A DNA stretch of 62,574 nt, counting the filler, from Stramenopiles sp. TOSAG23-3 (Eukaryota), in NCBI GenBank assembly GCA_900128585.1. It is 10 parts of 10 records of this genome, joined end to end, with 100 filler letters (N's around TTAATTAATTAA, not from the genome) between each part and the next. Parts side by side here need not be neighbours in the genome. Positions count along the whole stretch, not along the records: positions 32,284 to 42,895 come from LT642800.1; 9 more parts are not named here. One strand, written 5' to 3'. Positions 10,694-53,704 of this stretch are shown piece by piece (the stretch's first letter is position 1; each line of letters begins with the position of its first letter). The notes beneath the pieces were generated by a model. It was not told the origin of the DNA, did no database searches, and was given only the letters and a program-made list of their open reading frames with translations. A program made the position numbers and the translations under genes.

Positions 10694-10793
10694 NNNNNNN
10701 NNNNNNNNNNNNNNNNNNNNNNNNNNNNNNNNNNNNNTTAATTAATTAANNNNNNNNNNNNNNNNNNNNNNNNNNNNNNNNNNNNNNNNNNNN
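10694..10793. other. Artificial contig linker (also at 21468-21567, 32184-32283, 42896-42995, 53603-53702, 55398-55497, 57193-57292, 58988-59087, 60782-60881)
   Basis: Identical N-run / TTAATTAATTAA (stops in all frames) / N-run spacers. Confidence 0.99.
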
Positions 10794-21390: not shown

Positions 21391-21567
21391 TATTTTAGTA
21401 AGTGACACAATTCAGTTTATCCAAATTTATAAATAAAATGATTTTTTAAGAAAACAAATTATATATGNNNNNNNNNNNNNNNNNNNNNNNNNNNNNNNNN
21501 NNNNNNNNNNNTTAATTAATTAANNNNNNNNNNNNNNNNNNNNNNNNNNNNNNNNNNNNNNNNNNNN

Positions 21568-31902: not shown

Positions 31903-32283
31903 GTCCCACAATCCATCCTTCATTGCAAGATGTGATTGATTGTTATAAATGAAAATTAGTATTAAATATCATCGCGAAAATTATATTAAGAGTACGGAAA
32001 TAAGACTTTAAATTATTTTGTTTACAAAATCTTATTATATTAAAACAAGAAAATTGGCTGTTATTTTTAAGTAATTAAATTTAGCGTATTATATATTTAT
32101 TATCGCGGAGATACACAGTTATGAGGATTATGATTGGGTTCAGGGTCGTATGGTAGAATATCGTAGGAATGATAATGATGGTCNNNNNNNNNNNNNNNNN
32201 NNNNNNNNNNNNNNNNNNNNNNNNNNNTTAATTAATTAANNNNNNNNNNNNNNNNNNNNNNNNNNNNNNNNNNNNNNNNNNNN

Positions 32284-32416
32284 CTTCTTTACCCTTGTCA
32301 CTTTGCGTGTATTGTTTGACTGTATCTTTGCGCCTTTGATTGGCGACGGCATGTATCAACAACTCATTATATTGGTCAGGTGTAAGCTTTATTGAGAATG
32401 GCATGATACTATACAT
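32284..32416 (-). CDS. Small basic protein, 5' part; continues at 42816-42674 after circularisation (91 aa)
   Basis: MYSIMPFSIKL...LIHAVANQRRKDTVKQYTQSDKGKE is shared with the ORF at the other end; the joined ORF is intact. Confidence 0.8.
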
Positions 32417-32420
32417 ATTG

Positions 32421-32436
32421 TATATATCTTTAAGTA
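32421..32436 (-). promoter_or_regulatory. TACTTAAAGATATATA promoter-like motif (identical copy 32771-32786; variant ACTTAAACATAT 38898-38909 on +)
   Basis: Each copy lies 5-35 nt upstream of an ATG, in the gene's own orientation. Confidence 0.55.
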
Positions 32437-32463
32437 GTAATATTATTTATAAAAATAACATTT

Positions 32464-32739
32464 TTACAAATTGGGAATCTGGAAAGACATAGATATTAAA
32501 CGAGACAAAGCTTCACTTTCACTTAACACTGGATGCCATATTCCATTGACTAATCTCATTATTTTTCCATTTTTCAGAACATTAAGGTTTTTTTCACAAA
32601 CACAGTCTTTTGGGTTTTTATGGGGACAGATTCCGTTGTATGACCATTCACCTTTGGACCCCCTTTTTAGCTTCTTTAATATTCTATTGTATGCTATATC
32701 ATTTAATGCGTAGCTTCTTTTACTTATATTATTTCTCAT
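32464..32739 (-). CDS. Hypothetical 91-aa protein with CPH..C.C cluster
   Basis: ATG preceded by the element's promoter-like motif. Confidence 0.55.
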   Translation of the reverse strand: MRNNISKRSYALNDIAYNRILKKLKRGSKGEWSYNGICPHKNPKDCVCEKNLNVLKNGKIMRLVNGIWHPVLSESEALSRLISMSFQIPNL

Positions 32740-33078
32740 TTTATTATTTATATTATTATAATATATATATTATATATCTTTAAGTAATTACATTTTACCT
32801 TAAATGCGAAAAAACATTTTATCACTTAAAAACAATATCTTAATGTGCATAAGTTGAGATCATCATTGTCCGATGTTATGCACCATTAGGTAACAATTAT
32901 TTAGATTTAAAAGATACAATAGTATAAACAATATAAAGCACCATAAGGTAGTAATATCTAAAAAAATTAAAATTAATAATCAAAAAATAATAGCTATTAT
33001 TTTTTGTTTTATACAAGTGGATTTTTTGTGTATTTGTTACGGGTGCTTTATATTTTTTTGCAACAACTTATAGTTTTC

Positions 33079-34104
33079 TTACCTTTTCCTGGCTTTTTTT
33101 TTGGCTCGCTTTTTTTCTTGCTCATGATTTTTTTTTTCATTCTCCGCTATCGCGTGTCTTTCATCTTGCTGTTGCTTTCTCCAAATTTTGATTTTTCGTT
33201 TGGCAGGAGGGCTGAGCACATGTGCTTGGATTATTTTCTTCAAGGCAAGCTTTCTCTTCTCTTGCTCTTTTGCAATTTTCTCGTTGTATCGCTTTCGGCG
33301 TTCATGAAATTCATCAAGAGCGTTCTTTTCCTCTTCTGCAACAAGTTTTGCACGTTCAGCATTTGCTTTTTCTTCTTCTGCTGTCAATTTTTTAACAACT
33401 TTACGCTTTTTTCTTCTCTCCTCTTTTTCTTGTTCTTTTTTAGCGACATGATCGTTCCATTTTCTGTCGTCACGTTCTTTTTCTTCTCGTTTTCTCTTCT
33501 TTTTAAAATCCTCTTTCCACCCTTTAGGCATAGGCATACATTCAGAGGCTTCTTGCCACGCATCCATGACATCATCTTTCCATCCTGTAGGCATACTTTG
33601 AAATCTTTCACCCGTATAATCTAACAGATCGGCAGTAAATACTGCGGGGTGGCGAATATCCACGCTTCTTGGTGACAACCTTGAAAGGCGTTGAATCACA
33701 CTCTCGTATTGAATTAGATTTGCACCATGAAAAGAAACGTTACTGGAATGGAATATTAAATTTTCAATTGCTCCCACAGGATTAATGACAGCAGTCATAT
33801 CACGACAAATAACATTATCTACTGCCGTGAAAGTGCGAAAGACATAGTTCCAATCTGCTGCGGGACGACCGACGCAATACAGCCTGTAGCCTCCTAGAAT
33901 TTCGCCACCTTCAATCCTGTTCCCAAGTATGTTTGGGTGTTCTCGTAGAGCTAGTCCGTCGTAAGAAAAAGCATGTGTGTGTCGTTCCACAGCATGACAA
34001 TCCTCATTGAATAAGTTATCAAACCTTTGTAGTTGTCGTTGAAGTTCTCCAACCAACCTCCTACCTTCTTCTACGGCGTCAGTTTCGGTTGCAAAGCGTG
34101 CCAT
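33079..34104 (-). CDS. Hypothetical protein with a globular N-half and K/E/R-rich coiled-coil C-half
   Basis: 341-aa ORF starting 1 nt after the stop of the preceding ORF. Confidence 0.75.
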   Translation of the reverse strand: MARFATETDAVEEGRRLVGELQRQLQRFDNLFNEDCHAVERHTHAFSYDGLALREHPNILGNRIEGGEILGGYRLYCVGRPAADWNYVFRTFTAVDNVICRDMTAVINPVGAIENLIFHSSNVSFHGANLIQYESVIQRLSRLSPRSVDIRHPAVFTADLLDYTGERFQSMPTGWKDDVMDAWQEASECMPMPKGWKEDFKKKRKREEKERDDRKWNDHVAKKEQEKEERRKKRKVVKKLTAEEEKANAERAKLVAEEEKNALDEFHERRKRYNEKIAKEQEKRKLALKKIIQAHVLSPPAKRKIKIWRKQQQDERHAIAENEKKNHEQEKKRAKKKARKR

Positions 34105-34105
34105 A

Positions 34106-34570
34106 TTAATAGATAAATATTGGGTTTTTCTTTGAGCTTCCTCTTGATCTTTTTAAACGTTTCTTGTATTTTTCTTTCTTTTCGTTGAATTTTGGCACTG
34201 GTGGTAGTTTTGGTTTTGCTTTCTTCTTCCGTAACATATTCTTTCTCTTCTGTTTCTCGTATGCAACTCTACCTTGTTGTTTAGCGAAATCCAGTTCTTC
34301 TGGTGTATAACTAAGATCCTTCATTGTTTTTTTTAGATCCTTTAGTGCTTCAATAGCATCTTTTTGTGTATTAAATTGAAGATTTTTTGTAGTCTTTCTT
34401 GTCAGCATATTCATAATTTTCCATTTTCCTCTTATTTTAATTGCTTTATATTTCCTTATAAGAGGTTTGAATGGAACATTTTTATAGTATAGCGTGTCTT
34501 TTTTTTTTGGCCGTGGCATAAAACCGTATCGTATATAGTATAGCATGTCTTTTTTTTTTGTTCGTGGCAT
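34106..34570 (-). CDS. Highly basic 154-aa protein (possible DNA-condensing protein)
   Basis: K/R-rich, duplicated MPRxKKKDxLYY; ATG after TATATAAAT. Confidence 0.7.
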   Translation of the reverse strand: MPRTKKKDMLYYIRYGFMPRPKKKDTLYYKNVPFKPLIRKYKAIKIRGKWKIMNMLTRKTTKNLQFNTQKDAIEALKDLKKTMKDLSYTPEELDFAKQQGRVAYEKQKRKNMLRKKKAKPKLPPVPKFNEKKEKYKKRLKRSRGSSKKNPIFIY

Positions 34571-34602
34571 ATTTATATAAATAGAAAAAGATATTTTATT
34601 AA

Positions 34603-36160
34603 TTATTTTTTTTCATTGTCAGAATAGTTATCAGAATCGTTATCAGATTCGTTTTCGGAATCGTTATCAGTATCAGAACCATCATCTATCCAACATTTAC
34701 CTGGTATCCGTTTAGAAGGATTATAATGAGGCGATATAAATTTGTTAATTGTAAATTCTTTGAATGCATCAATCCACGCTAGTTCTTTTTTTTTTGCCGC
34801 TATCTCCTCATCTTTTATATTTTGGACACCGAGGTGCATTGTTGCCAATTTCCTTTCCTTGCAATACTCATTATATTCGCGACTCATTCGGTTTGTTTTT
34901 AAAAAATGACTGTCAAATTCACTTATGTCTATAAGAACCTTTTCTTCAAAGTTGTTTTGTAGGTATTCATCTAGCTCTTCGGGTTTCATTTCTACATCAC
35001 CTTTCTTTAATTTAAAATGATTTATAATAAATTCTGTGTTTCCGAGTGAGAGTTTCTTGCGTGGTTTTACAACTTTTTTTGTTATCGGAATTGTCCGAAT
35101 CAAGTATTCCCTCGCTGATTTTTTTAAAGTATAAAGAAAAATAGTTGTTTCGTTTTCAAACCATCTAATTGATTTTGCTTTATTAGCAAGTCTGTTTGAA
35201 ACTCCTTTTTTTTTTAATAGTTTGTATAGCGCCACTTTCCATGGTTCATGCAAATGCATTTTTTCAGGTCTATTATACCTATTCAGGTGAGCTAAAAAAG
35301 CGTTTGCCATAGAGTCTTCGTTGGCTTTTGGTTTATTTACGCCTCTATCAATTAAATAATCAACAAATGGTTCCAGTTTTTCTGGTTTTACAAAATGTGG
35401 TCTTTTGTTTTCTGTTTCTCCATATTCAAACCAGTTGATACTATCGATATTATCTTTTTCTTTATCAGGTAATTGCAAGTGTAACTGTGATAAAATATAC
35501 GCTTTATCGTCATCTTTTTTTGCATTAATTTCAGGAAGGTGACTTTTTTTTCCCAATTGGCGAAGATACGCACGATAATGAGGCACCCCTTTAACGCGAT
35601 AATACGGCGGCTTTTCCACCACCCTTTTATCATGTTCTTGGCTGTAATACCTATTTACGATAAAACTAACTGCATCGTCTGGTGGAATATATACACTTGA
35701 AAAAATGTCCAGTTTCACAAGCCGATCATATACAGTGTCAGACAATACTTTCTTTGCTTCTTTATAAAACAATTTTTGGAGCGACTCCTTAGTTTTATGC
35801 GTTTTTTTATACAACTCGTCATCACGATTAAAGTTTCTTAAATGCGCAAACATTGCATATACAAAAGCTTCATTATCATGCAATAAATTATTTTTTGGGC
35901 GTTTTCTGGCTTCTGTCTTTTCAATCCATTCCAATACAATTTTAATTTTTTTAAGCACAGCCTCTGTATCTGCCTCCTTTTGACTTCGCGTTACATTGTT
36001 TATTTTCAAAAAATAATCAATCTTTTCCTCAGTAAATACAACGTTAATTGGAGTAAGCAGTTGGATCAAAGCTTTACGGAACAGCGATAGATTAGAAGAA
36101 TTGAGTAAAAGAGCTTCCAATATGGATAGATTGATGTCTGGAATAATTTTTACGACATAA
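34603..36160 (-). CDS. Hypothetical ~520-aa protein with internal repeats; start codon unclear
   Basis: Long open frame with repeats AMFAHLRNFNR / AFLAHLNRYNR and SINWFE / SIRWFE. No in-frame ATG near the 5' end. Confidence 0.6.
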
Positions 36161-36181
36161 AATAATATGGTTTTATAGTAT

Positions 36182-37102
36182 ATGACGATCACAGAAAAAA
36201 GAATAGAGGGCTTGCAAAATAAAGTAATAAAACTAGTTCAAGCTCCTCCACGAAAAGTTCCTGAAAATCTGCCAACATTACACTTTTTAAACTTGATATG
36301 TGGTATGCGTGGTTCAGGCAAGACCAACACGATGGTAGGCTTAGTTCAGAAATACGACAAAACTAAGTCGTTTGATTTTATTTATATTTGGAGTCCTACC
36401 TGTAGAAGGGAACCAAAATATCAACATTTAATAGACACGCTAAAATATTCAAAAGTTGATTTGCGGGAGGATTTTACGATTGATGACTTTGTTCAAGTTA
36501 GGTCCGATATTGAATTAAGAATAGAAAAATACAAAAAGTATGAAAGAGATGTGAAAATTTGGAAAAGATTCTGCCAATACAAAGGGAAATGGGAGGACTT
36601 TGACAATGATGAACTACTTACAGTATTTGACGAATTTAATTACCAAAAGCCAGAAACTGAGTTTAAGAACGGGTGTCCCACCACGTTACTAATATTTGAC
36701 GACTTACAAAACAATAAAGATTTATTCGGAACGCTTGGAAAAGCTGCCCGAATTATGAATAACTTCACGGTCACGCATCGGCACTTTTTGACTAGCATAA
36801 TCTGGTCTTGTCAGGCATTTAAAGGTGGTGGTGTGCCTAAGAGCATCCGACAAAATATTAGTTGGTTGATATTGTTTTCAAACAAATCACCAGAGATTAG
36901 AAAGGAGATAGCGAAGGAAGTATGTGCAATAGTTTCACCAGATGAGTTCATTGAATGTTGGACGCACGCAACCAGGCAAAGCCGACATGACTACCTTTAC
37001 TTAGACCTAGAAGCCCCCGATGGTTTTCAAATTAGAAAGAATTTAGATATATTATTGACTGTAAAAAACTCTGATGAGAAAGAAAATAATGTAGATAAAT
37101 AG
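36182..37102 (+). CDS. A32-like (FtsK-HerA superfamily) genome-packaging ATPase
   Basis: Walker A GMRGSGKT, IYIWSPT, Walker B LLIFDD, HRH..SIIWSCQ, IRQN and HDYLYLD, as in Polinton/PLV/virophage ATPases. Confidence 0.9.
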   Translation: MTITEKRIEGLQNKVIKLVQAPPRKVPENLPTLHFLNLICGMRGSGKTNTMVGLVQKYDKTKSFDFIYIWSPTCRREPKYQHLIDTLKYSKVDLREDFTIDDFVQVRSDIELRIEKYKKYERDVKIWKRFCQYKGKWEDFDNDELLTVFDEFNYQKPETEFKNGCPTTLLIFDDLQNNKDLFGTLGKAARIMNNFTVTHRHFLTSIIWSCQAFKGGGVPKSIRQNISWLILFSNKSPEIRKEIAKEVCAIVSPDEFIECWTHATRQSRHDYLYLDLEAPDGFQIRKNLDILLTVKNSDEKENNVDK

Positions 37103-37163
37103 TATATGGTATGCACAAAATGCAATAATATAGAAAAAAGTAAAATATATTGTTATATTATAA

Positions 37164-38243
37164 ATGGCTACACAATTTAAAGTATTGGAACCACGCGCAT
37201 TAACAGAACATATATTTGGTGGCATGATATTATCTTTATTATCACCCTATGCTAATGACCCTAGATTACATACACATTTCTTAGACTTGAACCGAATACC
37301 AAAAACAACCATAACAGACACTGAATTTAACATAGTTCAACAACTTAATTTATTAGCCAATGGAGCCAATAGTTCTACTGGTGCTAAATTATTTAATATC
37401 GGTATAAATGCTGTAAATGAATTATATATTAAATTAAATGCTGAAGACCCTGTTTTAGGTGGTGGAAATCCACCAGCAATACTGGTAGATTCTCTTGGAA
37501 ATGTTTATATAAATGGTATTCAAATATCCAGTAGTCAATCAACAGGATTTTTATTTGAATTTAATACTAATGGAATTACCCAGTATAACAGAAACACCGC
37601 TAATCTCGGACCATTAGGACCAAATTACTGGACAGACCCAGCGACTGGCAACGAAAGATTTGATAATATTTTCTATGGCAGTCCTATCGGGTCATACGCT
37701 TGGAACGTTAAGACTATACCTTCAACCACACCATCATCACAGCTTATTTACAACAACAGTCCGATTCCTGGATCTTCAGCTCCTGGTTTTAGAACGTTTG
37801 CCTCAACAACTGACCAATTACCCGTTGATTGCGTAGTGTATGGTGAATTCTTTAACACCGTTCCACCTCCAAATGGAGCACTGATAAACAATATACCGCA
37901 TACTTTCAGCAACACTCCGATAACACTGGATTTCACAGCTGGCTATACCTTTACAGTTGGTATAATTAAACAAACTTATACAGGTGTATTTCCCACCCCA
38001 ATCATCAATGAATTAATTGCAAGTCAGGATATTCATGTTCCTTTTCGTGCCAATTACAACGGAACTGCCGTCAGTTTCTCCTGTAATTTTGCCTTTGAAA
38101 TGAGCGATAATGACGTTGCCACTGGAGCGCCTTGTTCGTATATACCATTCTTTAATCACAATGCTATTGAAGTCGGTCCTAACACTGCCGATTTAAGGTG
38201 GCGAGATGTGACCATAAGCTTCACCACTAAAGTAAATTTGTAA
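37164..38243 (+). CDS. Beta-rich putative virion structural protein (minor capsid/fibre-like)
   Basis: 359 aa, N/T/G/P-rich and K-poor unlike its neighbours; directly downstream of the packaging ATPase. Confidence 0.45.
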   Translation: MATQFKVLEPRALTEHIFGGMILSLLSPYANDPRLHTHFLDLNRIPKTTITDTEFNIVQQLNLLANGANSSTGAKLFNIGINAVNELYIKLNAEDPVLGGGNPPAILVDSLGNVYINGIQISSSQSTGFLFEFNTNGITQYNRNTANLGPLGPNYWTDPATGNERFDNIFYGSPIGSYAWNVKTIPSTTPSSQLIYNNSPIPGSSAPGFRTFASTTDQLPVDCVVYGEFFNTVPPPNGALINNIPHTFSNTPITLDFTAGYTFTVGIIKQTYTGVFPTPIINELIASQDIHVPFRANYNGTAVSFSCNFAFEMSDNDVATGAPCSYIPFFNHNAIEVGPNTADLRWRDVTISFTTKVNL

Positions 38244-38610
38244 AGTGTTTTTTAGCATTATTTAGTATAATAATAGTAATTAATACCATTATAATGCTAA
38301 TTATTGCTTAAAAAATATATTAACATATATTTTAAAAAAATACCATTTTTAGACTTTTTATACCCAATTACAGATATATTATATCCAAACCAACCGTATT
38401 TAAACTAAAAATAGTAAAAAAATGAAAAAAAACATAATTCCATTTTAAGCCTTTAAATAGTGTATAAATACATTATTATGTAGTATTTAAAGATAATCTT
38501 CCAAAAAACACCCTAAAATAGAAATAAATTGAAAAAAAAAATATTTTGGCATCTCGGCATTATTTCCGGTAGAAAAAATGATTGGAGGTGTCACTTCACA
38601 ACAACATTTT

Positions 38611-38777
38611 TTTTTGGTGTAGGCGTAGGCAGTGCATCCCCCTACACCTACACCAAAAATTTGGATAGTAAAAAGTTGAGTTTTGGTTGTAATGGTATTT
38701 CCATATAAAATAATTATCTAAGATAATGATATTTTTTTGGTGTAGGCGGCACTAACTACCTACACCTACACCAAAAA
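38611..38777. repeat. Twin hairpins TTTTTGGTGTAGG...CCTACACCAAAAA
   Basis: 38611-38659: 19-bp stem (1 mismatch), 11-nt loop. 38734-38777: 13-bp perfect stem. Both lie in the largest intergenic gap. Confidence 0.85.
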
Positions 38778-38922
38778 TAAAGATAATTATGCATAAAAAC
38801 CATGATTTATTGCAACATACAGATCCAGATACGATATTACATAACAGGACCGAAAAAACGAATCAAACCCGCACAAATCACAACACATTTGATTGTAACT
38901 TAAACATATTAGTGTTGTAAAA

Positions 38923-41900
38923 ATGGCATCCCTTGCACAAAACGACAAAGAAAGTTGGAGAGATATTTGGAAAGATCTAAAGACCAACAGACGCTACGAG
39001 CAGGATGTTGGTAAGGAGTGGAAAAGTCACTTTAAAGTTATAGCAAACCGAAAGGACATCAACGACGATGACAAATTTAATATATTTAGTCAAATTCAAC
39101 AACAATTGCACGAAGCTGAATGTTTTTCAGCAAATGAGCAAAAAAGAAAGTTTTTAAAAAAAACTAGAGACTTTCTTGAGCTAGAAGGCACGGACGGAGA
39201 AAAGCTTCTGAAGGAAACCAAGGACAAGATCTTGTTAAACTTAAATCAGTGTGAAAAAGCTTTAAAAAAGATGGGTTTATTGGTGGAAGATATACCAGAA
39301 ATAGCGTCAATGAAAGAAGACATATTGAGCGGGTATAAAAAAAAGACATTACCAAGAGGGAAAGCAGATGACCGTTACTCTACTATGACCGAATTGGAAA
39401 AAGAACTTGAACTGTTAAAAAAAAAATATAAAAACCAGCCAGAAAAAGTAGCAGAGATGCTAAAGATGTTTGATGAACTTATTACGGTAAATAACAATGT
39501 TGATTTTGATTGTGACGAAAAAAGCCCGCCCCCACAATTACCGCCAAGAAAGCCAACTGATGATATTGATGAAAAACTATCACCGTGGCAAAATATGAAC
39601 GGTTTTGACAGACACAAAACTTACATTGAAGATTATGCAAGGGAAAATGTTAGTCAGGACGCAAAGGAGTTTAAACTTAAAGTTCCTGAATGGATGCTGA
39701 AGCAGAAGGTCAATGGAATGAATTTTATTGATACAATTTGTTATTTTCATTCTACATGGCAATTTCGGGACCGTATATTTGCAAGATGTCAAAGGGGAGA
39801 GTGTCGGACCATTATTTTGGATCCTGATGTGTATGTAAATGGAAAACCAAGGTGTAGTAATCAAAAATGTCAATCTGGTTACAAAAAAAATCCATACAGA
39901 AAAAAAAATGATGACTTAATTGAATTTTTAACGAATGAGGATCCATCTATTTTTGATCCATTATCTATTGTTTCTGGTGAATTTAAAACAGACAGGTTTT
40001 TTTCCATTATTTCTATTGGAGAAACAATGAAAGGAAAGACATATTGTAGTTATTCATTGTTAAAAGACATACAAAAAAGCAAGCAAATGTTTCATACCAA
40101 TGACGTTCATGTTTTTAGTAAAATATCAAAAGGAAAAAAAAAAGAAAACTTTCCAGACGTTTTATCAAGAACTGGAGCTTATCAAAAAAATTTTCATAAA
40201 ACAAGGTTCTCCGAGTTAGATAAAATAGCAAAGAAGGCGGCAAAAAATAACGAAAATGGTGATGAGAAAAATACGTTAGTAGTTTTGGATGATGTCTCCA
40301 CTAGTTTTAAAAGATCTACAACAGCATTAGCAGACTTATTTACCGCAGGGCGTCATGATAATATATCTATTCTTGTGCATACACATGAGAGGTTTAAAGG
40401 TCCTAATGGACCGCTCATTAGAGCAAATGCCACACTGATAGTATTAGCACCTGGCAGCTTCAGAGGTTCCCAAGCGTCACAAATATCTGAAGATTTGATT
40501 GGAAAGCAATCAAAAAAAATAACAGATGCATTTATAGGCTATGTTAATAATATTTTAAGTTTAAGAACAAGGACATTTGCAATTATTGACCGTATTAAAT
40601 TGGGTGCATGCGATGGAGCTCATGTTCCATTTCATAAATTTGTTTTTTCCTACAAAGTTCCAAAAATGGAAAATCCAGCTGATGAATTGGCTGAACTGTT
40701 TGGAAAATATGATGACCAGCCAATGGAAGAAGAGGAAGAAGAAAGTAATGATGACAGTGACACGCCTTCTCCAAAACCCAAACCGAAGCCTAGACCGAAG
40801 CCTAGACCAAAACCTGCTCCTTATAGCAGGAAAAAAAAAGAAGAAGTAGAGGAAGAAGACGAAGACGTAAGAAAAGCACTACAAAAAGTAAAAGCCAGTA
40901 TTGAAGCTGGTAAAAGATCAAAAACATCATTTAAAGACATAAAGGGTTTAGATGATATCTGTAAATCTTTACAAAATTCTGTTAAAATGCGATTATTTCA
41001 ACCTGACCTATGCGATAGGACGGCTGGTGACGGGTTTTTACTGTATGGACCACCTGGCTGTGGCAAAACAATGGTAGCTGGTGCTCTAGCCCATCAATTT
41101 AAAGATGTTACTTTTTATAACGTATCAGCGGCGGATATTAATAGCAAATGGAAAGGCGAATCAGAAGGATTTGTAAAACAATTGTTTAAGCATGCAAGAA
41201 ACAAAACTTATAGTATCATATTTTTGGACGAATGCGAAGGTATATTTGGTGTAAGAAGTAAAGGTGGTGATGAACCAAATTTTGCTTTAACTCAGTTTTT
41301 ATCAGAGTGGTCAGGTGAGCAAAATGCAAATGTCCTAATTATTGCTGCCACCAATATTCCAGCAGAGATTGATGGTGCAATACTACGAAGATTTAATAAA
41401 GGTCATTATCATATACCATTACCAAACGATGAAGCAAGAAAGCATTTACTTTTACATTTATTTGGAAAAAAACAACACAATTTAACGGATAATAATTTTG
41501 CAGAATTAGTAACGAAAACAGAAGGATTCAATTGTTCAGATATTAAACAAATTGAGGTGGATGTTTTTGCAAATGCGGCAGAAAAGTTTTTTGAAGAAAG
41601 GGATATAAAAAGCAAAAGATACAAACCCAAAGATTTGCCACCTGTTGAGTATATAGACGTTGCAGAGTATATTGATAAAGAGTTTCAGTCAAAGGTAAAA
41701 AAAGAAAATGTTTTAATGTGCCAGCGATTTGCAAATCCAGATGAAATGTATGAGGATGTCACACCAAAAAAAGTATCACCAAAAAAAGTATCACCAAAAA
41801 AGGCATCTCCAAAAAAGTCGTCTCCAAAAAAGGCATCTCCAAAGAAAAAAAATGAAAAAAAAGCCTCAGCAATTCCCCAAAATTTACCAGAAGAAGCCAA

Positions 41901-42372
41901 AATGTGGAATGAAAAATTCTGGAGCGACAGTAAATTTAAAAAATACCACATGTTGGTAAAATTGGGTTGGGTTTGGCAGCAGGTTAAAATAAAAATGGGA
42001 GATAAGCCTGATTATGTAACTGAATCTGAAATTAACAGTATGTTAAAGCCAGATTTTTTAGCCAAACAAGAAGCTGAAGCTGAGGAGAGAAGACGGAGAC
42101 ACCAAAAGAGAAAGGAAGAGGAGAGGCGTAAAGGAAAAAAATCACCGAAAAAGAAAGAAATAAAAAAGTTGAAAGTAAGAAGTGTTAAAGCAAAAGGTGA
42201 TTTGTTTAGTGATCTTCGGGAAGCGAAAAATAGGTTAAAGAAAGAGAAGAAAAAATGCGGAGAGAAAGAGAAGAAAAAAGTTGGAAAAAAAGAGAAGAGT
42301 TTGAAGGAGATAATTAAAGAAAGGAGGGACGATATTGACCCAGAAGAGGACAATGGTGATTGGGAAGATTAA
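38923..42372 (+). CDS. Multidomain protein: Pro-rich + Cys cluster + A32-like ATPase + Vps4/katanin-type AAA+ ATPase + SPKK repeats + WCA-like tail
   Basis: GETMKGKT / VVLDD / GRHDNISI / IRAN; GPPGCGKT / SKWKGESE / IIFLDE / AATN / ILRRF; GDLFSDLREAKNRLKK; ends DNGDWED. Confidence 0.85.
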   Translation: MASLAQNDKESWRDIWKDLKTNRRYEQDVGKEWKSHFKVIANRKDINDDDKFNIFSQIQQQLHEAECFSANEQKRKFLKKTRDFLELEGTDGEKLLKETKDKILLNLNQCEKALKKMGLLVEDIPEIASMKEDILSGYKKKTLPRGKADDRYSTMTELEKELELLKKKYKNQPEKVAEMLKMFDELITVNNNVDFDCDEKSPPPQLPPRKPTDDIDEKLSPWQNMNGFDRHKTYIEDYARENVSQDAKEFKLKVPEWMLKQKVNGMNFIDTICYFHSTWQFRDRIFARCQRGECRTIILDPDVYVNGKPRCSNQKCQSGYKKNPYRKKNDDLIEFLTNEDPSIFDPLSIVSGEFKTDRFFSIISIGETMKGKTYCSYSLLKDIQKSKQMFHTNDVHVFSKISKGKKKENFPDVLSRTGAYQKNFHKTRFSELDKIAKKAAKNNENGDEKNTLVVLDDVSTSFKRSTTALADLFTAGRHDNISILVHTHERFKGPNGPLIRANATLIVLAPGSFRGSQASQISEDLIGKQSKKITDAFIGYVNNILSLRTRTFAIIDRIKLGACDGAHVPFHKFVFSYKVPKMENPADELAELFGKYDDQPMEEEEEESNDDSDTPSPKPKPKPRPKPRPKPAPYSRKKKEEVEEEDEDVRKALQKVKASIEAGKRSKTSFKDIKGLDDICKSLQNSVKMRLFQPDLCDRTAGDGFLLYGPPGCGKTMVAGALAHQFKDVTFYNVSAADINSKWKGESEGFVKQLFKHARNKTYSIIFLDECEGIFGVRSKGGDEPNFALTQFLSEWSGEQNANVLIIAATNIPAEIDGAILRRFNKGHYHIPLPNDEARKHLLLHLFGKKQHNLTDNNFAELVTKTEGFNCSDIKQIEVDVFANAAEKFFEERDIKSKRYKPKDLPPVEYIDVAEYIDKEFQSKVKKENVLMCQRFANPDEMYEDVTPKKVSPKKVSPKKASPKKSSPKKASPKKKNEKKASAIPQNLPEEAKMWNEKFWSDSKFKKYHMLVKLGWVWQQVKIKMGDKPDYVTESEINSMLKPDFLAKQEAEAEERRRRHQKRKEEERRKGKKSPKKKEIKKLKVRSVKAKGDLFSDLREAKNRLKKEKKKCGEKEKKKVGKKEKSLKEIIKERRDDIDPEEDNGDWED

Positions 42373-42396
42373 TTATGTTACTATATATTATACATT

Positions 42397-42714
42397 ATGC
42401 CGAAGACAGATAAGACTATTGCTGGCATTCCAAGCGCTGATTACTACCTAATTTACAGGTTAATCACAGCTGGCTTTGCTCATGTATTGAAACGAAAAAA
42501 CGATCCATCATATGTTCCTCCATCTAAAATATGTAACATATCTTACCAACAAATGGAAAATATTTACAACTCATTGCATAAGAATTATCCTCACCTATTT
42601 GATAAAACAGGTGCGATTAAAAGAAAAAAAAGTAATGTGGAAGAACTTGAGAGTGAGAGAAAAAAGAAGGAAATTACTTATGAAACAAACAAATTTGTCC
42701 TGAATTTTGACTAG
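42397..42714 (+). CDS. Hypothetical 105-aa protein
   Basis: ATG after TATATTATACATT; ends with a hydrophobic FVLNFD; overlaps the convergent ORF. Confidence 0.6.
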   Translation: MPKTDKTIAGIPSADYYLIYRLITAGFAHVLKRKNDPSYVPPSKICNISYQQMENIYNSLHKNYPHLFDKTGAIKRKKSNVEELESERKKKEITYETNKFVLNFD

Positions 42715-42895
42715 CTTTTTTAGCTTTTACTTTTTCACGATACCGTTTATTTATTTCAGCTATTTTCTTTTTACCTTTTTCTGATGCTTTGTATTTTTTA
42801 GCTGCTTTTTTTCTGGCTTCTTTACCCTTGTCACTTTGCGTGTATTGTTTGACTGTATCTTTGCGCCTTTGATTGGCGACGGCATGTATCAACAA
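42674..42895 (-). CDS. 3' part of the junction-spanning basic protein
   Basis: YTQSDKGKEARKKAAKKYKASEKGKKK; continues the 32416 ORF. Confidence 0.8.
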   Translation of the reverse strand: MLIHAVANQRRKDTVKQYTQSDKGKEARKKAAKKYKASEKGKKKIAEINKRYREKVKAKKASQNSGQICLFHK

Positions 42896-43173
42896 NNNNN
42901 NNNNNNNNNNNNNNNNNNNNNNNNNNNNNNNNNNNNNNNTTAATTAATTAANNNNNNNNNNNNNNNNNNNNNNNNNNNNNNNNNNNNNNNNNNNNTTGAA
43001 CAGGTGTCTACAATCGCATTTTACTTAAAGAAAAACAACGACGGTCGTGTTTCTTATTTTTGAAGAGCGATGGTAACATTAATATAGGAATAGCATCACT
43101 CGAACATTAGTCGTATTTATTTTATATAATTCTATTTTTTTTTTCTATTCAGTTCGTACTGCTATATTTTTCT

Positions 43174-46100
43174 CTATGCGTTTCTCCAAGCAGTGAGGGG
43201 TTTCCACTTAGCAGGCCGTCCAGACTCTATTCCAGTTCTCAGGAACTTCCATTGGAACACCCCGCAATCCCAGCCCCCGACAGAAACTACACTCTCGTCG
43301 CCGAGGAGAAACCGCACATTCATTACGTGGCTACTGTGGCCGTTGTACGCGTTGCATGGCGCGTGCTGCACGACGCAGGGGGCGTTGAACACTTTCACTT
43401 GCCCGAAATCGTCGGCCGTAACGACATACTTTCCGTCAGAAGTTTTGTGCAGTGAGTTAACATCGGTCCCGTCAGAATACTCTGGCCAAATTCCCATGAC
43501 AGAGAATCCAAGTACGCAGGTCCACGAGTACCAGTCGGTATCGGCTTCTACCTTGTCTAAAGTACTTCGCAGGGGGGCCCCGCTGGGCATGTCCCAGTAT
43601 ATTATTTCGTACGCCCCGCAGTTGCTTTGAAGTATACGACTGTCCCTCGACCAATCGATATGGGTGATATAGGAAGTATGACCCTTGCAGCGTGTGATGA
43701 AATCATACGAGGAGCGAACGTCGTAAACATCCACAAAGTTGTCGTGGGAAGCAACTGCCAAGTACTGGCCGTTCGGGGAGTACTTCAGGTCGTCTATGGC
43801 TTCTCGGCAGTCGTGCACGGACTTCAACATTGCCAGGGTGTCACCTCGGAAGGAGGTGGCCTTGTGGTACGCGTACACCAGAAAAGCGCCATTCAGCAGC
43901 CCGACTGCAATCGATTTTCCGTCCGGGGAAAAGTGGCAGGAACGGCCGAAGTCCGGCAGGACGATTGCGCAGAGCTGGGCGCGGGTCGAACCGTCCCACA
44001 GACTAAGCTGCTTGTCTTCTCCCACGGTAGCAAACAGGCAATGGTTCGTTGGGTGCCTTGCCAGCCCATACACTGGCCCGTAGTGACTTCTAGAGATTAC
44101 CTTCGCCGAAGAGCCCACGGAGGACTTTCCGCTCTTTTTCGACTTTTGCTCTCTCGACGGTCTACCAAATGCGGCCGCCGATTTCGGCCTTCCCTTGTTC
44201 TCGTCCGCAAGTTTCAACGACCATATGTCTCCTCTGCTCGTGGTGCAGTATATCTCTCCAGAATTTTTGCTGAGGGCAAATGTCCGTACACCGTGCGAGC
44301 TCCCCGCCGGGACGTCGGGACCGACACGCCCCGCCCCCTTGTTCTTGCCACTGTCGTCCGCATTTTTCTGCTCTGTGTGGAAGGGGGCTACTGCCCCACT
44401 GTTTGTGGTTTTGAACATTGGTGCGGCTGTGCTCCCACCCGGCGCGATAATGGTGTCGTTGTGGGCTGGGCCCTGGCGTTGTTGGGCCGCTCGTAGCTCG
44501 CCGTGTGTCCCAGAGAGGTTGACGTGGGCGATCAGGTTCACGGAGAACTCCTTCGTCCCCCGCGACGCCCTGTCCATCCTCCATCTTTTCGCCTCCGCGT
44601 CTGCCCCACCCGTCAGCAGCGTGGTGGAGGAGGCATTGTAAGCGTACAAATCAATAGAGTACACGGGCCCCCGGTGCGCTTGAAAGCTTTGTATGCACTC
44701 CCCTTTTGACACGTCGAAAAGGTAGACGAGACCGTTGCTTCCCCCCGTTAGCAGTCGGGCACCGCCGTCGATGTACTTCCCACAGAAGGTCTTCCTTGGC
44801 AACCGATTTGCTTTTCCATAGCGTGAGTTTTTTACCAGCAATGGGTTCAGTCGGTCTTTCATGTTCAAATCCAACGTCCAGAATTTGGTGTGGTTGCAGC
44901 CGACGGTAGCGAACTTCATTACTTTGCGACTGTTGTCGAGCGACGATGCATTTGTGGGAACAATAATTCCAAACACCTGCGGCGGAGCCCCATTCTGGCA
45001 CCCGGACTCCGCAATGAATTTTCCCGGGGTAGGCTCCCCTTTCGTGGCAAGGCCGTGAATTTCGAGGCCTTCCTGCTCCGACTTCGACAGTTTCCACTTC
45101 CATATCCCGATCGCGTGGTGATCGTCGGAGCCGATTCCACATATATAGCTGCTCGAATTTCCCAGGAACGAGACGGCGCAAACAGCCCGGTGAAAGAAAC
45201 CCCCGGAACCCACAACAGAGAAAATCTCGAATGTCTCGATGGACCAGACGACGACCCGGGGGTTGGCCCCCAGCTGGCCGCTCGCGGCGACTTTGCGAGA
45301 ACGGTCCAGCGTCAGCACTGTGATATCGTCGTCATGGTTGATGAAATGCCGCTGGGTGTTCTTCTTTGGGTCGTACACGACAACGACAGCGGCAATGTTG
45401 TACACCAACTCCCCCGCGGCGGACAAGTGAAAATTGTGGGGGGAACGACCGTTGCAGCCGTAGACCCACTCCAGCTCTAGGTCTGCATCGGGCGTCTTTG
45501 CCGATCTTGCCATATCAGCGGGGTCCCAGCCGGACGGCGGTTGAACCGAGGTACGGCTATAGCGGTACTTCATTCTCTGCGGCACCTCTCCCTTGGATAT
45601 CGGCTTGACGACGCGCTCCCCGTAGTGCCCTTGGTCAAACGGTCCCTGCAAAACGACGGGGCGCTCGTCGTCTTCGTACTGCAACGCCAGCAGAGCCTCG
45701 TACTCCTCGGCCGTCCGCCCGTCCTGCTTCTGCGGTCTTGACCTACTGCCATGACCGCGTGGGGGAAACAACAAGTTCGACAAAAGGGTCTTGTTCCCAC
45801 CGTTGGTCGAACGCCACAGGGACGTCACCTCCTCGTCAGTCATCGGCTTTGTCCCATTTTCTGTGAACGCACGAAGGACAAACCCGAAATCCCTTCGGCG
45901 CAGTCGTGCGTGGTTACCATACCTGTCGCAGACAGTCTTCAATATTTTCTTTCCAATCTCAATCTGCATCGCAGAGATGTGGTACTGGAGCCTGTCGTCG
46001 GTGGTGAGGAGCTTCTCCCTGCCCTGGCCCCGCAATATGACTTCCTGACGGAGGCGTTTCAGCAACCGATGCGAATCCCACACGTCTGGCAGGGGACCCG

Positions 46101-47676
46101 TGGGCCTCGGCGTCGATATTCGAGAAGATACCACGCTTTCCCTGTCGCTCGCGGAAGATCCACGGGAGGAGTTAACCGCCTGTCTGGACGATTGCTGCCT
46201 TGATGACGGTCTCCTGCCGTTCGACTGGTGGTCGTTGGCGAACGGGGCAGCGGCTGCCCCGGGGGCAGAGACCCTCTTGGCAGCCGGCGGCCTTCCAAAA
46301 GTTCTATCTTTTCCCTCTTTCGACTTCTTTCCGTGTTTGGACTTCCCAGCTTTCCCAGCGGCACCGAATGTTTTCAACCCGACAGCTTTGATTCCCCGTT
46401 TGCGAAGAATGGCTTTCATTGTTTTGATATCATCGGCGGCAATGCCAAGGTCGTCCGTTATCTCTTCGACGCTCTGGCGGCCATCCTCGTGCGTGACAAG
46501 GACCCGGCGGCAAGTGCTGTTCTGATAGTTCCCTTTGCCCCCGCTGATGTGCCAGGCATTGCGAATCATCAGCTCAAAATAGTCGTCGCTTTCGATCGCA
46601 GCCCCGATGTTTCTATAGTAGGTTTTGAACTCGTCTTTCGTAACAATTCCGTCCTTGTTCGCACTGTCGAAGGCATCCAAAAGGTGCTTCAACGCGTCCG
46701 CTTCCGATATTTTGCCAGACACAACGTCTGGAAGCAGCGAGACGTCGTACACGCCTGCCAGGTCATCAATCGTGATGACCCCATCGCCAGTCTTGTCCAT
46801 GACGTCAAAAGCCTTCAGAACCAGCTTTTCCCGCCGCTCATTCAAAGGCCCCGCCAAACCGAGGAGAAACTCGTCGAAATCGATGGAACCGTTCCCGTCG
46901 GTGTCAAAATACGCAAACAGGGTGTCGATGTCGTCGTCGGCCAAGTTCACTTTGAAATCTTTCAGGCCATACTTCAACTCCTCCTTCGAAAGCTTACGGT
47001 CCCCGCTGTCGTCCATGACTTTCATGATTCTGGAGACGCCGTGAATCCCGGTAGTCCCGCCACGTTCAACGATCTGTTGCTTTATGCGGTCGACAATCCT
47101 GGTAGATTCTTTTTGTCGACCCTCCTGGGAGGACCCAGACTTATCCCCCCTGGAGACGGGCTCGTCCCCTCGGTAAAACGGTGCATTCTGCACCGCAGAC
47201 TTCGTGGCAGGGGCCTTCCTCGCCTTGGAACGCCCGGCGAGAAAACCGTTCCCCCGGGAAGGGGATGAGTTCCTCTTGCTCTCCGATTGGCTGGTATTTT
47301 TGGCCCGGGGCTTGACCTTCTTGTCCCCAAGCATGCAAGCGATAAATTCATTGACGGACAAGATGTTGCTCCCGTCTTCGTCAAAGTAATCAAACAGTGC
47401 GCGGACAACGCCCTCTTTGATCCCTTGCAAGTAAGGCGCCATACCCTTTGCAAACTCGGAAAACTCGACGTCCCCCGAACGGTCGACGTCTACGTTCCGA
47501 AAAGCGATTTCCACCGTCCTCCGCGGGGTATGACCCTTCCTTGTTTTCGCCAACACGTTCTCACGAAGGGTCACAACAATCTTTTCAAGCTCAGCAGTAG
47601 GTACATTCGCAGAAGCAGTCTTGCGTTGCTGTTGCTGCAAGCGCAAGCGTTGGCGGGCCTTTGTAAAGGCACTCAT
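43174..47676 (-). CDS. EF-hand/calcyphosin-like + EML (HELP-WD40 tandem propeller) microtubule-associated protein
   Basis: Multiple EF-hands (DVDRSGDVEFSEF, DTDGNGSIDFDEF, DDYFELMIRNAW); LELEWVYG, GHTSYITHIDWS and GHSSHVMNVRF. Likely ATG at 47676. Confidence 0.9.
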   Translation of the reverse strand: MSAFTKARQRLRLQQQQRKTASANVPTAELEKIVVTLRENVLAKTRKGHTPRRTVEIAFRNVDVDRSGDVEFSEFAKGMAPYLQGIKEGVVRALFDYFDEDGSNILSVNEFIACMLGDKKVKPRAKNTSQSESKRNSSPSRGNGFLAGRSKARKAPATKSAVQNAPFYRGDEPVSRGDKSGSSQEGRQKESTRIVDRIKQQIVERGGTTGIHGVSRIMKVMDDSGDRKLSKEELKYGLKDFKVNLADDDIDTLFAYFDTDGNGSIDFDEFLLGLAGPLNERREKLVLKAFDVMDKTGDGVITIDDLAGVYDVSLLPDVVSGKISEADALKHLLDAFDSANKDGIVTKDEFKTYYRNIGAAIESDDYFELMIRNAWHISGGKGNYQNSTCRRVLVTHEDGRQSVEEITDDLGIAADDIKTMKAILRKRGIKAVGLKTFGAAGKAGKSKHGKKSKEGKDRTFGRPPAAKRVSAPGAAAAPFANDHQSNGRRPSSRQQSSRQAVNSSRGSSASDRESVVSSRISTPRPTGPLPDVWDSHRLLKRLRQEVILRGQGREKLLTTDDRLQYHISAMQIEIGKKILKTVCDRYGNHARLRRRDFGFVLRAFTENGTKPMTDEEVTSLWRSTNGGNKTLLSNLLFPPRGHGSRSRPQKQDGRTAEEYEALLALQYEDDERPVVLQGPFDQGHYGERVVKPISKGEVPQRMKYRYSRTSVQPPSGWDPADMARSAKTPDADLELEWVYGCNGRSPHNFHLSAAGELVYNIAAVVVVYDPKKNTQRHFINHDDDITVLTLDRSRKVAASGQLGANPRVVVWSIETFEIFSVVGSGGFFHRAVCAVSFLGNSSSYICGIGSDDHHAIGIWKWKLSKSEQEGLEIHGLATKGEPTPGKFIAESGCQNGAPPQVFGIIVPTNASSLDNSRKVMKFATVGCNHTKFWTLDLNMKDRLNPLLVKNSRYGKANRLPRKTFCGKYIDGGARLLTGGSNGLVYLFDVSKGECIQSFQAHRGPVYSIDLYAYNASSTTLLTGGADAEAKRWRMDRASRGTKEFSVNLIAHVNLSGTHGELRAAQQRQGPAHNDTIIAPGGSTAAPMFKTTNSGAVAPFHTEQKNADDSGKNKGAGRVGPDVPAGSSHGVRTFALSKNSGEIYCTTSRGDIWSLKLADENKGRPKSAAAFGRPSREQKSKKSGKSSVGSSAKVISRSHYGPVYGLARHPTNHCLFATVGEDKQLSLWDGSTRAQLCAIVLPDFGRSCHFSPDGKSIAVGLLNGAFLVYAYHKATSFRGDTLAMLKSVHDCREAIDDLKYSPNGQYLAVASHDNFVDVYDVRSSYDFITRCKGHTSYITHIDWSRDSRILQSNCGAYEIIYWDMPSGAPLRSTLDKVEADTDWYSWTCVLGFSVMGIWPEYSDGTDVNSLHKTSDGKYVVTADDFGQVKVFNAPCVVQHAPCNAYNGHSSHVMNVRFLLGDESVVSVGGWDCGVFQWKFLRTGIESGRPAKWKPLTAWRNA

Positions 47677-48775
47677 GGCGTGTACTATATGAAAGCGAAT
47701 AAATGGGTAGTTGCAAAATTTCCCTACCTCTTGAATATTACAAAGCAAACGTGCAGTAAAGTCTTACTTGAACAAAGAACAAATACGTTTCCTTTAACTG
47801 GCTGTTTATTTAAAACACATGAATGTATATGTACGTATATTCATTCGTGACACTTCAATAAATACGAGGAGATACAGTGAAAACAACAAAGAAGAGTGGT
47901 GAGATTTTTTTAATTATTATTTGTTTTTTACATAAACACAGTACAGCGTTTAGAATACGTACACATTTTAAATTTTTAAAATATTAATAGTACCTAATAA
48001 TTCAAAATTGCAATGGACATATAGAGACTAGAACGACTATTAATACCCTTGAATGAAAATAAATGAGTAACGGCGGTGATGATCATCCGATCATCGAGAA
48101 GAAGCAAGAAAAGAGGAAAAGAAGAGGAAACTCAACAAAGACTACGAGGAATTCTTCAATTTTTTATTTTCAGAAGAATTCAGAATAGAAAGAATTAGAA
48201 TTAAAACTTCGTAGACTAAGTACATAATATATTTCAAATTGGGGGTGGTGTGTCCTTATAAATACGAGAGTATATTAGTCTAATAAGTATTCAGCTGATC
48301 ATTTTTATATATTCTTCGTAAAATGAAAATAATAATAAAATAATAAATAAAGAAGAAAAAGAAGAAACGAAAGAAGAAAGAAGAAATGTGACAACGTCCA
48401 ATATAAGCGTACGTTAGGACCTCGTATTATTATGAGGTAGGACGGAGAGAGATAATGTCAATATATGAAATGCATGGATCCAATGGAGGATGGATGGATG
48501 GATGGTTATTTGGTTTTTTGTTTGGTGATTTTGTGAGGAGTCTGGAGAGAGTAGAGTAGAGTAGATAAATAGATATCTGTTTGAGTGCTTGTTTGATTTA
48601 AAGAAAATAGGAAAAACAAAAAAACAGTTCATTTGGTTACATGGCTCTTGTAATTAAAAAACACATTTAGCAGTATTAATAGCACGTACGTTTCTTCTTC
48701 TCACGTCCTGTTCGAAGACTGCCTATACGAATACGAATAATTAGACGAACTGAGGTTCTCCAAAAAGGACTTATT

Positions 48776-53427: not shown

Positions 53428-53704
53428 AGTCTATACGTTCCCTTACCAACGCGTGAAAAGAAATAGTCAGTAACCACCGTATGTATTGTATTCGCGCATT
53501 CGAATCTCTTCACGGAAAGTTGTGTTATATTTAAAGTGTCTCTCTCTCTCTCTCTCTCAAATTTTTTCATTCAATTTTCTTCATGTACACACACGAATGA
53601 AGNNNNNNNNNNNNNNNNNNNNNNNNNNNNNNNNNNNNNNNNNNNNTTAATTAATTAANNNNNNNNNNNNNNNNNNNNNNNNNNNNNNNNNNNNNNNNNN
53701 NNGT

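Follow-up and report, generated by a model that had tools for sequence, protein, structure and literature searches.

An A32-like ATPase and a classical AAA module fused in one open reading frame of a small circular or concatemer-forming virus-like element

Introduction

Why would a DNA motor of the kind that packages viral genomes be joined, in one polypeptide, to an ATPase of the kind that unfolds proteins? This question is raised by a gene in a 62,574-nucleotide stretch of DNA (hereafter the window, meaning the whole stretch that was analysed) from Stramenopiles sp. TOSAG23-3 (assembly GCA_900128585.1). On one of the contigs that make up the window (LT642800.1), a single open reading frame (ORF), encoding the 1149-residue protein P0001, contains an A32-like P-loop ATPase domain of the FtsK-HerA type followed by a single classical AAA module. 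The original prediction, made from this DNA, had read the gene as a DNA motor physically coupled to membrane or cytoskeleton remodelling. Here, we describe the fusion protein, its variants and the element that carries it, and weigh what the two ATPases might do together.

Results

Two P-loop ATPase domains in one open frame

The fusion ORF stays open through 18 homopolymer runs of at least seven bases and encodes, in order, a coiled coil, a putative zinc ribbon, an A32/B204-type ATPase, an acidic, PK-rich linker of ~70 residues, the AAA module and a basic tail (Table 1). It is about twice as long as the span first proposed for it (39990–41745), beyond which lie 345 N-terminal residues, comprising the coiled coil, a proline-rich stretch and a four-cysteine putative zinc ribbon, and a 210-residue basic tail. 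The core of the original prediction was borne out: two distinct P-loop domains with intact Walker A and Walker B motifs share the ORF, all of the motifs named for them lie where they had been placed, and an acidic, PKPR-containing linker (residues 583–654) separates them. The linker contains a 12-nt tandem repeat and a run of nine adenines (A9). A programmed frameshift at this A9 was considered and rejected, as the run is not special among the 18 in the ORF and the other frames mostly stop early.

The fusion is kept in frame among variants

Comparison with metagenomic relatives gives good indirect evidence that the predicted fusion is a genuine single-ORF protein of a circular or concatemer-forming, virus-like element of ~10.5 kb, found in marine samples. 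A near-length search, in which residues 1–640 were compared with proteins of 631–2011 residues (7,997 candidates scored), returned one cluster, P0002, whose three sequences come from ENA and JGI; the contigs that carry them reach 10,713 and 12,404 bp. The same domain order is found, in frame, in all four full-length variants (the window protein P0001, P0002, P0010 and P0011). Every catalytic residue of both ATPase domains, including the AAA pore loop, is invariant in the four, among them GPPGCGKT, the Walker B DE, N811 and R822/R823 of the AAA module, and so are the four cysteines of the putative zinc ribbon. The linker differs in length by 1–3 residues between variants, always in frame, around an invariant PK/PR core.

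Identity to the window protein changes markedly along the polypeptide. For P0002 and P0010, respectively, it is 90% and 97% in the N-terminus, 98% and 98% in the A32-like domain, 85% and 82% in the linker, 74% and 74% in the AAA module, and 22% and 22% in the tail. P0010 joins a window-type N-terminus (97%) to an AAA module and tail of the P0002 type (99% and 96% identical to P0002, respectively) and is evidently a recombinant. Of the four ways in which these modules could be combined, three exist, all intact, and the mosaic structure of P0010 indicates that these lineages recombine while the frame survives. Recombination in this mosaic gene takes place inside either the A32-like region, which is nearly invariant, or the linker.

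The first domain is equivalent to a stand-alone A32-like enzyme

The first domain had been assigned to the FtsK-HerA/A32-like ATPases, and this assignment held: Pfam Pox_A32 (PF04665) matches residues 359–487 above its cut-off (E 2e-6; 27.9 bits, cut-off 22.8), its relatives are Pox_A32 proteins, and its modelled structure is closest to B204 of Sulfolobus turreted icosahedral virus (STIV). Searching 1.84 billion representative proteins with residues 310–606 (E ≤ 0.001) gave eight matches, namely the fusion's own cluster (P0002, 1096 residues, 98% identical) and seven others. All seven are distant, stand-alone proteins of 156–267 residues that score above the Pox_A32 cut-off (26.5–63.6 bits). 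When these were aligned with the fused domain and with a stand-alone ATPase of 306 residues encoded on the same contig, the Walker A motif, the Walker B DD, the GRH motif and the R-x-N motif were common to all, with D122, D123, R143 and H144 as invariant columns. The nearest stand-alone relative, P0003 (235 residues), has its C-terminus exactly at the end of the fused A32-like domain; because of this and the shared motifs, the fused domain is, as judged by alignment, the equivalent of a complete stand-alone A32-like enzyme.

An AlphaFold (AF2) model of the first domain, built from a nine-row alignment, reached a predicted local distance difference test score (pLDDT) of 69 and a predicted template modelling (TM) score of 0.74. 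Foldseek comparison of this model with the PDB listed B204 chains of STIV or STIV2 as all of its top 10 matches (E 1.7e-7 to 6.7e-7), with TM scores of 0.62–0.68 on the target, and HerA, FtsK, TcpA and EccC ranked next. A sequence-only PDB search with the same domain found no match (best E 0.35).

P0003 lies on L002 (1–16172), a 16-kb contig with 52% G+C filed under a Legionellales metagenome-assembled genome, where it is the sole A32-like match among the 10 larger ORFs scanned, and which also encodes a 1349-residue protein with a superfamily 1 (SF1) helicase. L002 has the look of a small virus-like element sorted into a bacterial genome during binning; it has nothing in common with the fusion element besides the A32-like domain.

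The second domain is a classical AAA module with Vps4-like features

The second domain is matched by Pfam AAA (PF00004) over residues 706–826 (E 2.6e-31; 109.2 bits, cut-off 21.2). No MIT domain had been evident in the original reading, and indeed neither MIT (PF04212) nor Vps4_C (PF09336) matches the fusion protein at E ≤ 0.1. The position that MIT occupies in Vps4 is taken by the A32-like domain, and in the alignment the ~25-residue beta-domain insertion of P0040 is absent from the AAA module. Because MIT, a Vps4_C match and the beta-domain are all missing, the module is, in its predicted domain content, not a Vps4 orthologue.

Membership of the Vps4/katanin clade, which had also been proposed, is favoured by the comparisons, not secured. 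Whole-protein PDB scores are led by the two-ring proteins VAT and p97, each summing two domains; the first single-AAA chains are Vps4B/SKD1 (140–144 bits) and another Vps4 (136 bits), and no katanin, spastin or Msp1 chain is among the best 60 PDB matches. Of 1050 candidates in a search with residues 655–940 against proteins shorter than 631 residues, 189 matched at E ≤ 1e-20, and 120 of these matches were listed. Per-domain rescoring placed MIT- or Vps4_C-bearing (Vps4/CdvC) proteins first (128–145 bits), with MSP1/ATAD1 below them (about 110–118 bits), and among the 120 matches listed identity to Vps4/CdvC relatives is 41% at most.

A quick maximum-likelihood tree was built from 73 domain rows, drawn from 64 of the 120 listed matches together with two viral alleles, and containing no katanin, spastin or fidgetin rows; 56 matches were excluded, comprising the self fragment P0020, partial proteins with two domains, and many archaeal proteasome ATPases that are nearly identical to one another. 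The branch leading to the virus pair is long (1.63) and falls within a group of Vps4/CdvC and MSP1/ATAD1 (Shimodaira–Hasegawa-like approximate likelihood ratio test (SH-aLRT) support of 93, not starred), but it does not arise from among the Vps4 rows. The Vps4 and MSP1 group is split from Cdc48/FtsH/PAN with a support of 96 (starred). In the AAA alignment the window module reads LR--RFNK, like the Vps4 and MSP1 rows, and the PAN rows and P0064 read L/MRPGRxD; we take the short RRF without PGR to be a marker of the Vps4/katanin/spastin/MSP1 group. The top matches to Vps4/CdvC, the LR--RF form and the SH-aLRT support therefore speak for the proposed clade, whereas an approximately unbiased (AU) test, which does not reject the best tree with the virus pair beside Cdc48/FtsH/PAN (log-likelihood difference 7.3, p 0.195), and a tree without katanin and spastin rows leave it short of secure. 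From its likeness to these proteins, the AAA module may behave as an unfoldase of the Vps4/MSP1 type.

The N-terminal region and the tail

For the N-terminal 345 residues there was no Atlas match and no credible Pfam match, the best being tRNA-synt_1c (E 0.0034; 16.8 bits, below the cut-off of 23.4), and the four-cysteine putative zinc ribbon is without a Pfam match. Beyond the AAA module, the SPKK repeats that had been placed at 41761–41850 are present at 41761–41847, as one TPKK and five SPKK units. Each of the other three variants has a single SPKK, so that the array is expanded in the window variant alone.

The basic tail is matched by the CCDC53 family (PF10152) in both the window protein (E 0.0053) and P0002 (E 0.0073), each below the 24.6-bit cut-off. 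Its C-terminal DNGDW (D1143–W1147) is invariant among the variants although the tail is only 22% identical, and presumably resembles the W-acidic motifs that bind Arp2/3 or kinesin light chain. Two other candidate likenesses were rejected: a PDB match of the tail to protein phosphatase inhibitor-2 (E 0.004) was judged compositional, and a putative WH2-like stretch at residues ~1096–1110 is without a Pfam WH2 match at E ≤ 10.

The fusion gene lies on a small element distinct from its neighbours

Nine copies of TTAATTAATTAA between runs of N (0.03 copies expected by chance) mark the window as a chain of separate contigs, five of ~10.6 kb and the remainder of ~1.7 kb. The G+C content of the fusion contig is ~33%, against 40–59% for the flanking contigs, which carry clearly eukaryotic genes (an EML-like EF-hand/WD40 protein, Piwi/PAZ, SHMT and a sedolisin-type peptidase); because spacers separate the contigs, these genes are not linked to the fusion gene. 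Two ORFs on neighbouring contigs are intron-free, one of 1168 residues encoding a Piwi/PAZ protein whose N-terminus has RGG/GGYNDRGG repeats (24495–28001, plus strand) and one of 1524 residues encoding a protein with EF-hands and an EML-type double propeller (43174–47748, minus strand).

An identical 79-nt direct repeat is found at both ends of the fusion contig (32284–32362 and 42817–42895), and an ORF of ~91 residues is open across the end-to-start junction. The junction is also spanned by L001, an independent metagenome contig of 1,168 bp, whose bases 1–1116 correspond to positions 9497–10612 of the fusion contig at 99.5% identity and whose bases 1038–1168 correspond to positions 1–131 at 100% identity. 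Because of the end repeat, the junction-spanning ORF and the read-through in L001, the fusion contig is a circular or concatemeric element whose unit measures 10,533 bp. Scans of it for tRNAs and Rfam families gave no match.

In a listing of sequencing runs, 20 of the 23 listed rows share part of the contig, across 12 studies; one run is its likely source, and another contains 0.68 of the contig's words. The runs are mostly marine, sponge or viral metagenomes; the listing was not used as evidence, whether for habitat, for the virion fraction or for the junction.

Table 1 Positions of the fusion gene, its domains and motifs, and other features of the window (window coordinates; residues of the fusion protein P0001)
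Feature	Position	Strand	Residues	Remarks
Fusion ORF P0001	38923..42372	+	1149 aa	ATG to TAA; single open frame
N-terminal region	38923..39786	+	1-288	K/E-rich, helical; Pro-rich SPPPQLPPRKP (201-211)
Putative four-Cys zinc ribbon	39787..39870	+	C289, C294, C311, C316	read from sequence
A32-like (FtsK-HerA) P-loop ATPase domain	39955..40668	+	~345-582	
Walker A GETMKGKT, first domain	40018-40041	+	366-373	
Walker B VVLDD, first domain	40288-40293	+	453-457	position is that of DD
GRH, first domain	40348-40356	+	476-478	
IRAN, first domain	40420-40428	+	499-502	R500/N502
Linker	40669..40884	+	583-654	acidic run, (PK/PR)x8, second acidic run
Single classical AAA module	40885..41736	+	655-938	
FKDIKGL, AAA module			670-676	
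Walker A GPPGCGKT, AAA module	41047-41070	+	709-716	
Pore loop SKWKGESE, AAA module	41146-41157	+	741-748	position is that of KWKG
Walker B FLDE, AAA module	41227-41232	+	767-770	position is that of DE
Sensor-1 AATN, AAA module	41353-41355	+	808-811	position is that of N811
RRF, AAA module	41386-41391	+	822-824	position is that of RR
TPKK/SPKK x6	41761..41847	+	947-975	15-nt tandem repeat, 5.7 copies
Basic tail	41848..42372	+		K/E/R-rich; weak CCDC53-like stretch; C-terminal DNGDW at 42349-42363
Stand-alone A32-like ATPase	36182..37102	+	306 aa	Pox_A32 E 8.9e-8, 32.3 bits
All-beta protein, capsid or fibre-head candidate	37164..38243	+	359 aa	62 bases downstream of the 306-aa ATPase
Fusion-bearing contig	32284..42895			10,612 bp; ~33% G+C; spacers at 32184-32283 and 42896-42995
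Spacers N44-TTAATTAATTAA-N44	10694-10793, 21468-21567, 32184-32283, 42896-42995, 53603-53702			100 nt; read from sequence
Four further N44-TTAATTAATTAA-N44 spacers	near 55.4, 57.2, 59.0, 60.8 kb			read from sequence

A second A32-like gene and an all-beta protein on the same contig

The stand-alone 306-residue ATPase is encoded ~1.8 kb upstream of the fusion gene and, besides Pox_A32, matches PHROG 2666, annotated as terminase large subunit (E 2.4e-6). Its similarity to the fused A32-like domain is marginal (BLASTP E 0.089, around Walker B and GRH). Two A32-like genes in one 10.5-kb genome are unusual. The next gene encodes a 359-residue all-beta protein, and the fusion gene begins 680 nt past it. 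Clusters of both proteins, too, have members on contigs 10,713 and 12,404 bp long.

Relatives of the 359-residue protein fall into 14 clusters (51–100% identity), on contigs that mostly measure 1.5–16 kb, though a few reach as much as 27 kb. Its AF2 model is poor (pLDDT 57), and Foldseek gave weak matches to TNF/C1q-like jelly-rolls and to fibre heads; a double-jelly-roll major capsid protein was considered and is unsupported (query TM ≤ 0.29). Nothing usable came from the Atlas, and scans of IMG/VR and GTDB with this family gave no match. An FtsK-HerA packaging ATPase is common to double-jelly-roll viruses and its gene is usually close to that for the capsid, according to PMC6563490. By its position beside the jelly-roll gene, the 306-residue ATPase may be the canonical packaging enzyme of the element, in which case the fusion would be an accessory morphogenesis machine.

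The other ORFs of the contig (341, 154, 529, 105 and 91 residues) have no credible match in Pfam or PHROGs, the 91-residue ORF giving a single weak Pfam match (E 0.028, below the cut-off), and no polymerase, primase, Rep, helicase or protease was recognised in the other contig ORFs scanned against these two databases. On the minus strand, a 38-nt direct repeat at 34483–34571 doubles the first residues of the 154-residue ORF (MPR.KKKD.LYY twice), and a 12-nt tandem repeat at 34619–34674 forms the acidic, D/S/N-rich C-terminus of the 529-residue ORF, in which no ATG occurs among the first 80 codons. Directly upstream of the fusion gene is a 680-bp AT-rich non-coding region (38244–38922) with two similar GC-rich inverted repeats (GGTGTAGG.../...CCTACACC, at ~38609–38660 and ~38736–38777), each flanked by runs of T and A. 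These predicted hairpins could be an origin or bidirectional terminators.

Searches for the same architecture

We know of no second A32–AAA fusion from the searches made, which would miss one with a very different A32 sequence. Beyond the fusion's own cluster, P0002, none was found in the near-length search or among the 1.84 billion proteins, and PF04665 occurs in none of the 120 shorter AAA relatives listed. Among 50,697 phage records, 103 match and none covers at least 80% of the two-domain query; the 15 rows listed all cover the AAA part alone. Scans of IMG/VR with the A32-like part and with the AAA part gave no match. The literature, in its accessible parts, holds no description of such a fusion, and the supplementary gene tables for virophages and polinton-like viruses could list one. 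The original statement that no protein of this architecture was known is thus upheld, within these protein, phage-record, IMG/VR and literature sources, for everything other than the variants described above.

Discussion

FtsK-HerA ATPases act as rings on double-stranded DNA (dsDNA), and Vps4, katanin, spastin and MSP1 are hexamers that thread polypeptides. Where Vps4, katanin and MSP1 act is determined by a module N-terminal to the AAA cassette, either MIT or a membrane anchor. In the fusion protein this targeting position N-terminal to the AAA module would be held by an A32-type ring. If the protein forms hexamers, the result would be two tethered rings, one engaging DNA and one threading polypeptide. 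Because the A32-type ring holds the targeting position, the AAA ring would be brought to one of two sites, viral DNA or the packaging vertex of the capsid. There it might pull a protein off or out, for instance one that is bound to DNA, that serves as a plug or scaffold, or that lies in a membrane, while the genome is being encapsidated or released, and the basic tail might help to hold the DNA. We put this forward tentatively: that the A32-type ring delivers an unfoldase to viral DNA or the packaging vertex for the removal of protein is a real possibility, for which our confidence falls a little short of even. The best explanation overall, which we hold to be somewhat probable, is a genuine viral A32–AAA fusion whose unfoldase is delivered to DNA or to the packaging vertex.

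A number of points weigh against this explanation. No secure major capsid protein is present among the contig ORFs scanned (by Pfam, PHROGs and the model of the 359-residue protein), so that the term packaging vertex presumes a type of capsid. Either of the two A32-like proteins may be the DNA packager of the element, and the presence of P0003 as the A32-like match of L002 hints that the fused domain itself descended from a packaging enzyme. Also, P0020, a protein of 461 residues on a 3,947-bp NCBI contig, starts at M688 and consists of the AAA module and tail alone; it may be a gene called separately or a fragment from the end of a contig.

A hetero-double-ring assembled from one polypeptide, in which an FtsK-HerA ring that translocates dsDNA and a Vps4/MSP1-like ring that threads polypeptide would mechanically couple the pumping of DNA at the vertex to the ATP-driven stripping or extraction of protein (chromatin, a plug or a membrane conduit), appears doubtful. 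If true, this would be the first packaging motor to incorporate a virus-encoded Vps4-type unfoldase, and the element would belong to a family of circular marine viruses of ~10 kb that has yet to be described.

It is unlikely, on our assessment, that the fusion is instead a machine for replication or segregation, with the 306-residue ATPase as the packager, the A32-like ring moving or resolving the circular genome and the AAA ring recycling nucleoprotein complexes. Such a role would fit a contig on which no replication enzyme was recognised in the other ORFs, a putative zinc ribbon and basic SPKK tail that suggest DNA binding, two GC-rich hairpins in the region directly upstream, and a 306-residue ATPase and jelly-roll gene whose order resembles the usual packaging-capsid module described in PMC6563490. 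It fits less well with the relatives of the fused domain, since all seven that are detectable are short stand-alone Pox_A32 proteins, or with the nearest relative's contig, which has a helicase protein of its own, and the element may depend on a host or a helper virus for its replication. To our knowledge, classical AAA modules are not DNA helicases, which also counts against this role.

Still less probable is a fusion without mechanical coupling, in which one ORF would yield two independent enzymes, or a polyprotein would be cleaved in the linker. Independent enzymes would be in keeping with the long, flexible, low-complexity linker, with the marked difference in evolutionary rate between the halves (98% and 74% identity), with their recombination as modules, and with P0020, which contains the AAA module and tail alone. 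However, Pfam and PHROGs scans of the contig revealed no protease gene, and the fused frame is kept, with an invariant PK/PR core in the linker, in all four full-length variants.

The coupling originally inferred, of a DNA motor to membrane remodelling of the ESCRT-III type (endosomal sorting complex required for transport) or to cytoskeleton severing through a Vps4/katanin-like AAA module, we consider harder again to sustain. The top single-domain matches are Vps4/CdvC, the tree groups the module with Vps4 and MSP1, the alignment has the short LR--RF form, both of the divergent tails weakly match CCDC53, a family of WASH-complex subunits, and the acidic C-terminal DNGDW is invariant. These likenesses are offset by the features of Vps4 that are missing (MIT, a Vps4_C match and, relative to P0040, the beta-domain insertion), by CCDC53 matches that stay under the Pfam cut-off, by an AU test compatible with placement near Cdc48/PAN and a tree without katanin and spastin, and by the contig itself, on which Pfam and PHROGs scans recognised no ESCRT-III-like gene. 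An assembly artefact that misjoined two genes across the repetitive linker, as its tandem repeat and A9 run and the start of the P0020 product at M688, directly past the linker, might suggest, is very unlikely, given that four variants in ENA and JGI assemblies share the junction (their contigs reaching 10,713 and 12,404 bp), that the linker varies slightly yet always in frame, and that the frame is intact through all 18 homopolymer runs.

Delivery of an unfoldase by an A32-type ring, the explanation that we prefer, would bear on two fields in which A32/B204 packaging ATPases and Vps4-type unfoldases are well studied, always as separate machines. Their covalent fusion offers a handle on what else must be moved or removed as a membrane-containing icosahedral virus drives its DNA through a vertex. 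It would also show that a motor domain can stand in for MIT or a membrane anchor and redirect a classical AAA unfoldase. The gene also marks a circular virus-like genome of ~10.5 kb that recurs in ENA and JGI metagenome assemblies. Should the ORF serve merely to co-express two enzymes, the interest would drop to that of an unusual accessory gene.

Among known systems, the first domain is closest to the A32/B204 packaging ATPases, such as vaccinia A32 and STIV B204, with which it shares the Walker A motif, the Walker B DD, GRH and R-x-N, a Pox_A32 score above the cut-off, B204 as its best structural match, and a setting in a small virus-like genome with a jelly-roll gene nearby. The known members, like the seven relatives found here (156–267 residues), stand alone, whereas in this 1149-residue protein 345 residues precede the fused domain and an AAA module follows it, and the genome has a second, stand-alone A32-like gene. 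With Vps4/CdvC, the AAA module shares the KW-x-G pore loop, the arginines of RRF and an alignable C-terminal segment after the lid; it differs from Vps4 in lacking MIT, a Vps4_C match and the beta-domain, in its long branch (1.63) and in an identity of at most 41%. MSP1/ATAD1 group with the virus pair in the tree and likewise have a single AAA module, with the place where they act determined by the part N-terminal to it; unlike them, the fusion protein has no N-terminal transmembrane anchor. Cdc48/p97 and NSF, which give the top total scores against the AAA module, likewise carry two tandem P-loop ring modules on one polypeptide; in these proteins, however, both rings are AAA, whereas in the fusion the first would be an FtsK-HerA ring, joined to the second by a long disordered linker. 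Each domain of the fusion thus comes from a known family, and it is their combination that is new among the searches made, on an apparently undescribed small circular element.

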